DNA of 64,000 bases from Escherichia coli (GTDB lineage: Bacteria > Pseudomonadota > Gammaproteobacteria > Enterobacterales > Enterobacteriaceae), in assembly GCF_003334255.1 (NCBI RefSeq), contig NZ_QOWU01000015.1. One strand, written 5' to 3'. The notes below the pieces were generated by a model. That model saw nothing but the letters and a program-made list of their open reading frames with translations. It had not been told where the DNA came from and searched no databases. Below, piece after piece: positions 56,311 to 57,474 of the stretch; within the stretch, counting starts at the first letter, position 1, and the number at the start of each line of letters is the position of its first letter. The position numbers were made by a program, and so were the translations under genes.

Positions 56311-56724
56311 TCACGCAATTTTTCTGGCCATCAGATAGATAGCCGGTTCCAGCACAATTTCATCCAACAGATGAATGAATTGAATGCTACGCGCTTGCCA
56401 CACAGACGTCGCGTCATCTGCCAGTGGCGCGAATGCCCGGGTCAACAGGGCGGTGTGGCTGGCGTCAATAACAATCTCACCAAAAGTCATCACCCCCAGC
56501 ATCTTACGTCGGGCTTGCTCCTCTTCGACCAGTGCAAGCCAATCTTCGTATTCCGTCAGTGGGCAGCGGAAGGCGACATTCAGACAATCAATCACGCCAA
56601 CGTGATGACCGATAGCCAGCGAGTAATACATTACCTGAGAGCTGTGTTCCGGCATCTCGTCGCTACTGGCGACAAACTTTTTTCGCAGCGTCCAGAAAAC
56701 AATTTCCCCGCACTCTTCAGTCAT
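56311..56724 (-). CDS. hyfJ: hydrogenase-4 component HyfJ (HycH-like maturation factor)
   Basis: 137 aa from [11 protein letters not shown]; synteny. Confidence 0.85.
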
Positions 56725-57474
56725 GTAACCCCCTGAGTACGCGAAAGAGTTGCTGAACGATACTATTGAGACGTGGATCGTCGGCATCGCGCAACCAGGT
56801 GTTAACCCGATTTCCTGTAGGATCGTCGCTTAAATGGCGCAGGAGCCGATCGCAAATTTCTCGCCCCTGACGATAGCCCGCCAGCCGCCGCGCTTCTCGC
56901 TCAATGGCGATACGCTGTGATGGCGGGATCTGTGGCCACAACGGTTGCATAGTCACCCCGGTGGGATCGCGATAATCCACAGCGTGAATCTTCTGTTGCA
57001 GCAAACCGAGCGCCACGGCGAAACCGTGAATGGTGGCGGCCGGTGTTGGCGGGCAGCCGGGGATCCAAACATCAATGGGGACAATGGTGTCGCTGCCGCC
57101 CCAGACGCTGTAGAGATCGTGGAAAATACCGCCGCCGACACCGCACGCGCCGTAGGAAACACAGATTTATGATCGGGGGCAGACTCATACGCCCGAAGTG
57201 CAGGCATACGCATCGCCCGGGTGACTGCGCCAGTAAATAACAAAATATCGGCGTGACGCGGTGATGAAACAACCTTAATGCCAAAACGTTCTGCGTCGAA
57301 TACGGGGGTGATGGCAGCAAAAATTTCGATTTCACAGGCGTTGCAGCCACCGCAATCGACGCGATAAACGTAGGCTGAGCGACGGATATCCTGTAGCAAA
57401 TGCCGCTTCATATTTTGCGTTTGCTCGTCCAGCGTGATGGGCTGGCTGACATATTGCGTAAGCACTGGACTCAT
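56717..57474 (-). pseudogene. hyfI: hydrogenase-4 small subunit HyfI (NuoB/HycG-like), interrupted by a single-base frameshift
   Basis: ORFs 56953..57474 (173 aa) and 56717..57016 (99 aa) in different frames; downstream frame is open back to ~57170 and encodes ...[31 protein letters not shown]... Confidence 0.75.

Follow-up and report, generated by a model that had tools for sequence, protein, structure and literature searches.

The hydrogenase-4 (Hyd-4) small subunit gene hyfI in the window, i.e. the 64,000-nt stretch of Escherichia coli DNA analysed here, is very probably a true inherited frameshift pseudogene that originated once, was spread by recombination and was a late hit in an operon with multiple lesions. 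One A is absent from an A4 run, the lesion is heritable, it lies on a single haplotype and it co-occurs with other lesions. In the mechanism that we propose, one A would have been lost from the A4 run at hyfI codons 103-104 and translation would then proceed out of frame for 70 codons to a stop; the deletion would have arisen once, on a distinctive ~2 kb haplotype, and homologous recombination would have carried it into at least four different hyf backgrounds. Moreover, the deletion would have hit an operon that already carried other lesions, as part of a species-wide decay of the hyf-focB operon.

A single A is missing from hyfI

The window contains the hyf-focB operon on the minus strand, collinear with that of K-12 MG1655 from hyfC to focB and on to bepA/yfgD (98.9% identity in the alignment). 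hyfI (56717..57474, minus strand; hydrogenase-4 small subunit, NuoB/HycG type) sits between hyfH and hyfJ, the orthologous position in hyfABCDEFGHIJR-focB, and has 758 nt vs 759 in K-12. The first-pass annotation had proposed that two overlapping ORFs of 173 and 99 aa in different frames together cover one NuoB/HycG-type small subunit, and both ORFs were found as described. ORF1 (56953..57474, minus strand; 173 aa) encodes 103 native HyfI residues, including Cys41, Cys44 and Cys47, after which 70 residues are read out of frame up to a stop. ORF2 (56717..57016, minus strand; 99 aa) is the entry in the ORF list for the other frame and starts at the GTG at 57016.

Alignment of hyfI with the 252-aa gene of K-12 MG1655 gave exactly one gap, of 1 nt, placed at 57168. 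The K-12 sequence at the site is CATAAAAT and that of the window is CATAAAT, i.e. an A3 run (57166..57168, minus strand; T3 on the plus strand) in place of the A4 (T4) found in K-12 and almost every other E. coli; the missing A or T had been predicted at this site. A TAA is present at 57169-57167, and the downstream frame is open directly after it, which places the shift within the AAA run at 57166-57168. Translation also bore out that the downstream frame continues through WIPGCPP to the stop at 56717. Thus opened at 57166, the -1 frame (56717..57166, minus strand) encodes HyfI residues 104-252 with Cys111 of the GxCxxxG motif, Cys141 of the GCPP motif and the C-terminal extension.

When one A was put back, hyfI encoded 252 aa, 250 of which are identical to K-12 HyfI (b2489, NP_416984.1, 252 aa), the differences being H8Y and K21N; the identification of the gene as hyfI was therefore correct, and the window copy represents the K-12 locus without one A in codons 103-104. 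The restored protein matched Pfam PF01058 (6e-24, residues 44-152), passed the cut-off of the NCBIfam NuoB model (NF005012; 121.4 bits vs a cut-off of 116) and matched HycG of the FHL complex (7z0s_G; E = 7e-99, residues 9-247). The motifs DCGGCNxCEIE, YGACG and IPGCPP are conserved between restored HyfI and HycG, the hydrogenase-3 small subunit (PDB 7Z0S/7Z0T chain G). In total, the split of hyfI is an observation far above chance level.

The encoded products are predicted to be non-functional

As encoded, ORF1 reached 50.1 bits vs the NuoB cut-off of 116, over profile positions 27-106, and the 99-aa ORF2 matched no NCBIfam family. The four proximal [4Fe-4S] Cys ligands (CxxC...GxCxxxG...GCPP) do not occur in one polypeptide: Cys41 and Cys44 are encoded in ORF1, and Cys111 (YGACG) and Cys141 (GCPP) in the -1 frame only. 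We rejected a functional split gene, because the first ATG, GTG or TTG start in the -1 frame, the GTG at 57016 that begins ORF2, lies downstream of both of these Cys ligands and lacks a Shine-Dalgarno sequence, and because ORF2 has no family match. In contrast to HycG, the intact and functional paralogue from the hyc operon, the window product is without the YGACG and GCPP halves. Since the product keeps the CxxC half and lacks the GxCxxxG and GCPP cysteines, it would, by analogy with HycG and NuoB, be unable to bind the proximal [4Fe-4S] cluster or to form the electron-transfer small subunit of Hyd-4. Judged by its sequence, window hyfI is a disrupted and predictably non-functional member of the NuoB-family small subunits, and its function is presumably lost.

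The downstream gene hyfJ (56311..56724, minus strand) is intact and its ATG overlaps the normal hyfI stop. The ORF1 stop is now 229 nt upstream of the hyfJ start and, therefore, translational coupling would be lost; polarity on hyfJ-hyfR-focB is possible.

The deletion occurs in independent isolates on one haplotype

With a 901-bp query around hyfI, the locus was found in 4295 of 5426 complete E. coli genomes. Eighteen complete genomes were 100% identical to the query over exactly 901 bp and one more was 99.7% identical over 901 bp; the remaining matches among the best 40 of the 4295 (ranks 20-40) all span 902 bp. Similarly, the exact A3 71-mer centred on the site was detected in 19 of 3999 matching complete genomes (about 0.5%), and all 41 non-carriers among the matches listed for this 71-mer have A4 (72-nt span). 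All 71-mer counts given here and below refer to complete genomes with the hyf locus and are lower bounds, because carriers with nearby SNPs are missed. The two-ORF arrangement is not the wild-type state, as ~99.5% of the site-matched hyf genomes are without the exact A3 71-mer.

The 19 carriers come from ~12 independent, unrelated projects in countries that include the USA, Germany, Japan, Cuba, Ecuador and Malawi; among the sources are human stool (USA), cattle (Germany, USA, Okinawa), pig (Japan), poultry (Cuba), humans (Ecuador, Malawi) and seawater, and for one Tokyo isolate the source is unstated. Moreover, the exact 173-aa product including its out-of-frame tail was found on at least 1000 contigs (NCBI, JGI, ENA, Logan). 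PGAP/RefSeq tags hyfI as 'frameshifted' in every carrier examined, including C6992_RS02945 (2014C-3061) and AC3XMD_RS06560 (cM8a), both identical to the window over 901 bp. The gene has the properties of a unitary pseudogene, i.e. an intact orthologue in most close relatives and a disrupted frame here, and a heritable lesion in independent isolates on a common haplotype. We conclude that the hyfI frameshift is an ordinary pseudogene allele that is already annotated in RefSeq.

The window differs from strain cM8a at 1 position in 18 kb and is near-identical over 14 kb to G1/2, G6/7, G8, JP538, B-1109 and MB06232. In carriers other than this cM8a-like group, the flanks are ~1% divergent from the window; e.g. 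the 2014C-3061 group differs from the window in having hyfD frameshifts, a long hyfG, a long hyfH and an intact focB. Around the deletion, all nine carriers examined in detail share with the window a SNP-free block of at least 1351 bp. This block extends over 2034 bp (56352..58385, minus strand) in 2014C-3061, 13E0780 and OkiPb01680, and over 1351-3498 bp in UTAK-1, OkiPb01711, LR-45 and MB51; its core, common to all carriers examined, is 56934-57702. In non-carriers, SNPs are present already 140-600 bp from the site. No A4 copy of the carrier haplotype was found among the best 40 of the 4295 matches, in which the nearest listed non-carriers were 99.1% identical. A SNP-free block set in ~1% divergent flanks points to a single mutational origin of the hyfI deletion and implies that the block was later moved, probably by homologous recombination, into at least four hyf backgrounds.

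The operon carries further lesions

In every carrier of the hyfI A deletion (ΔA) examined, at least one further hyf or focB gene is disrupted. In the window, focB (53398..54247, minus strand) is a pseudogene with a C6 to C7 insertion at 53560-53566 that shifts the frame after codon 227; focB is also tagged 'frameshifted' in cM8a, and the exact 71-mer for this insertion was present in 200 of 4294 genomes (4.7%), including that of ETEC H10407. hyfH (57471..58010, minus strand) encodes 179 aa (vs 181) as the result of a 6-bp in-frame deletion of one GCCTGY unit near 57880, which converts CxxCxxCxxxCP to CxxCxxCxCP in the first ferredoxin motif (57864-57893); the exact 71-mer for this allele was present in 762 of 4292 genomes (18%). 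The short hyfH form is present in a DH5alpha assembly and MG1655 has the long form, which suggests that GCCTGY is a recurrent repeat-slippage site. hyfR (54269..56281, minus strand) is intact, with 7 aa differences from K-12. In a close relative, WP7-S17-ESBL-04, the 3' part of hyfR and the whole of focB have been lost to an IS1A element (L006 10770-12016); this loss is a further step of operon decay.

hyfB lies outside the window and is frameshifted in the nearest relative cM8a (L004 1646-3663, deletion at locus position 2236), so that the hyfB lesion of the window strain is known solely through near-identical genomes (cM8a). The lesion is the loss of one C from TTTCCGC at codon ~197 (ΔC); it is outside a homopolymer run and, therefore, a sequencing error is unlikely. 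The exact 71-mer for hyfB ΔC was present in 1255 of 4293 genomes (29%). A hyfD frameshift by shortening of G6 to G5, with 994 of 4284 genomes containing the exact 71-mer (23%), was seen at L001 3224, which corresponds to window position 63275; hyfD in the window is intact (479 aa). Finally, hyfI itself is subject to a second frameshift, the loss of a T (ΔT) from GGTATTTTCC at hyfI nt 348, i.e. 41 nt downstream of ΔA. This ΔT allele, carried e.g. by strains 01_3327 (L015 21334-22091) and MEI1A-0323 (L018 21173-21930), affects the same gene as the window allele with the same predicted consequence; however, it arose independently on another haplotype and is much commoner, the exact 71-mer being present in 681 of 3948 genomes (17%).

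Among 8 evenly spaced genomes without the hyfB lesion, 5 have one or more PGAP pseudogenes among the operon genes and 3 are fully intact. Intact hyf-focB operons, i.e. without a PGAP pseudogene and with long hyfG and long hyfH, are present in O157:H7 ATCC 43888 (L019), FDAARGOS_1290 (L013) and AR_0137 (L016); we regard these three strains as candidate carriers of a working E. coli FHL-2. The locus is absent from ~1130 complete genomes, which agrees with a published table in which phylogroup B2 lacks hyfABCDEFGHIJ (PMC2617782 Table 5).

dN/dS between hyf alleles is low (0.04-0.35; 0.06-0.18 for hyfI). Purifying selection has therefore acted on the operon through most of its past, and the lesions are young compared with the divergence of the alleles; 'decay' applies to these recent hyf lesions only. 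The first-pass annotation had raised the possibility that this strain has inactivated Hyd-4 by the frameshift. The lesion itself is real; by contrast, Hyd-4 was probably inactivated by an event other than hyfI ΔA, because the window also has lesions in focB, hyfH and hyfG and because cM8a has the hyfB frameshift.

Adaptive loss, artefact, recoding and phase variation

Inactivation of Hyd-4 might have been favoured, in which case the haplotype would have been spread by selection rather than drift. The occurrence of a ~2 kb block in at least four flanking backgrounds fits such a scenario, as do the several independent hyf lesions at high frequency (hyfB 29%, hyfD 23%, hyfI ΔT 17%) and the B2 phylogroup, from which the whole operon is absent (PMC2617782 Table 5). 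However, the A3 allele is rare (0.44%), it is always found alongside other lesions and would thus add no further loss, and neutral hitch-hiking in an often-recombining region explains the mosaic equally well. We therefore consider adaptive loss highly unlikely and infer that the hyfI lesion is neutral.

The alternative left by the first-pass annotation, that a homopolymer miscall dropped one A/T from an intact gene during sequencing or assembly, is extremely improbable. It is true that a single nucleotide is missing from a mononucleotide run and that several carriers are long-read assemblies with other homopolymer-type frameshifts, e.g. G6 to G5 in hyfD; moreover, the window base call rests on identity with other assemblies. 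However, the run is merely 4 nt, the identical allele recurs in the 19 complete genomes from independent projects, and the contigs with the frameshift product include short-read assemblies from Logan and ENA. In addition, random errors would ignore haplotype, and the allele is restricted to one haplotype defined by SNPs. On the basis of this population evidence and haplotype linkage, an assembly artefact was rejected, and of the two possibilities it is the real, heritable mutation that stands.

We also rejected recoding, in which -1 ribosomal frameshifting or transcriptional slippage would join the two frames into a functional full-length HyfI. The geometry fits a -1 shift, because 64 nt (56953-57016) are common to the two ORFs and the -1 frame opens at 57166; however, ORF1, which covers the whole overlap, contains no X_XXY_YYZ slippery heptamer, and the hyfI gene contains no homopolymer run of at least 6 nt. 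Transcriptional slippage requires runs far longer than A3. Moreover, the shifted state occurs in only about 0.5% of orthologues, unlike a programmed frameshift, and the operon has other frameshifts that are uncompensated; we accord this explanation virtually no probability. Phase variation, with the A run acting as an on/off contingency tract for Hyd-4, is likewise of negligible likelihood. The common second frameshift in a T4 run 41 nt downstream (681 genomes) indicates that short hyfI runs mutate repeatedly; however, known contingency loci have tracts much longer than 3-4 nt, and all copies of the haplotype that were observed have A3, the best 40 matches containing no A4 sibling. In addition, each frameshift allele is bound to its own haplotype, and the same operons carry further irreversible lesions.

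A 48-bp deletion in hyfG is shared with K-12

hyfG in the window (58020..59687, minus strand; 1668 nt, 555 aa) is nucleotide-identical to that of K-12. Compared with hyfG of O157:H7 and of about half the hyf-bearing E. coli genomes (1716 nt), 48 bp are missing between two GCCCGTGATT repeats, of which one copy survives at 58523-58532, and the 16 aa YSPVGPLIRGSGFARD are lost. The counterparts of this segment in the alignments are FSNVGPMVRASGHARD in HycE and VGPTARGSG in P. furiosus MbhL. Among 30 evenly spaced hyf-bearing genomes, 15 have the long and 14 the short hyfG allele.

The pattern [FYH]S.VGP..R.SG is kept in 114 of the 120 best homologues from many genera, and the 5 exceptions in which the surrounding context is retained all have the E. 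coli K-12 deletion junction. Therefore, the short hyfG allele, which the laboratory reference strain K-12 carries, is derived and has lost a universally conserved VGPxxRxSG motif. We suggest, tentatively, that the hyfI frameshift came late in a stepwise, species-wide breakdown of Hyd-4 in which the widespread hyfG deletion was possibly early and, if it kills HyfG, would explain the inactivity in K-12; we regard this sequence of events as possible rather than probable.

The hyf operon has been called 'silent' (Self et al. 2004, as cited in PMC7654741), and 15 K-12 strains into which Phyc or T5 promoters and HyfG::HycE tail swaps had been introduced produced no H2 from Hyd-4 (PMC7654741). The failure of strong promoters to elicit Hyd-4 activity in K-12 (PMC7654741) is in keeping with weak selection on the operon. 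E. coli FHL-2 has been described as a 'long-standing mystery', with the question asked which deficiencies block its activity (bioRxiv 10.1101/563510), and its inactivity has been ascribed to poor expression together with the lack of an accessory gene (PMC7384014). If the tentative scenario above is true, the hyfG deletion, and not poor expression or a missing protease, would explain the lack of Hyd-4 activity in K-12, and intact ancestral operons, e.g. that of O157:H7 ATCC 43888, would be the place to seek a working E. coli FHL-2. No mention of the 16-aa deletion in HyfG, or of natural hyfI or hyfB frameshifts or pseudogenes in E. coli, was found in the literature, of which few subscription papers were reachable, making this absence weak evidence.

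On its own, the hyfI frameshift matters little in an operon without demonstrated activity in E. coli; for annotation, Hyd-4 should be left out of the hydrogen metabolism of this strain. The operon-wide context together with the hyfG deletion shared with K-12 is more useful: the hyfB, hyfD and hyfI frameshifts at 17-29% and the K-12 hyfG deletion offer a testable genetic explanation for the 'silent' FHL-2. Finally, the hyfG region (~57931-60000) has zero nucleotide differences from K-12 within flanks that are ~1% different, and thus represents another recombination mosaic boundary in the operon.
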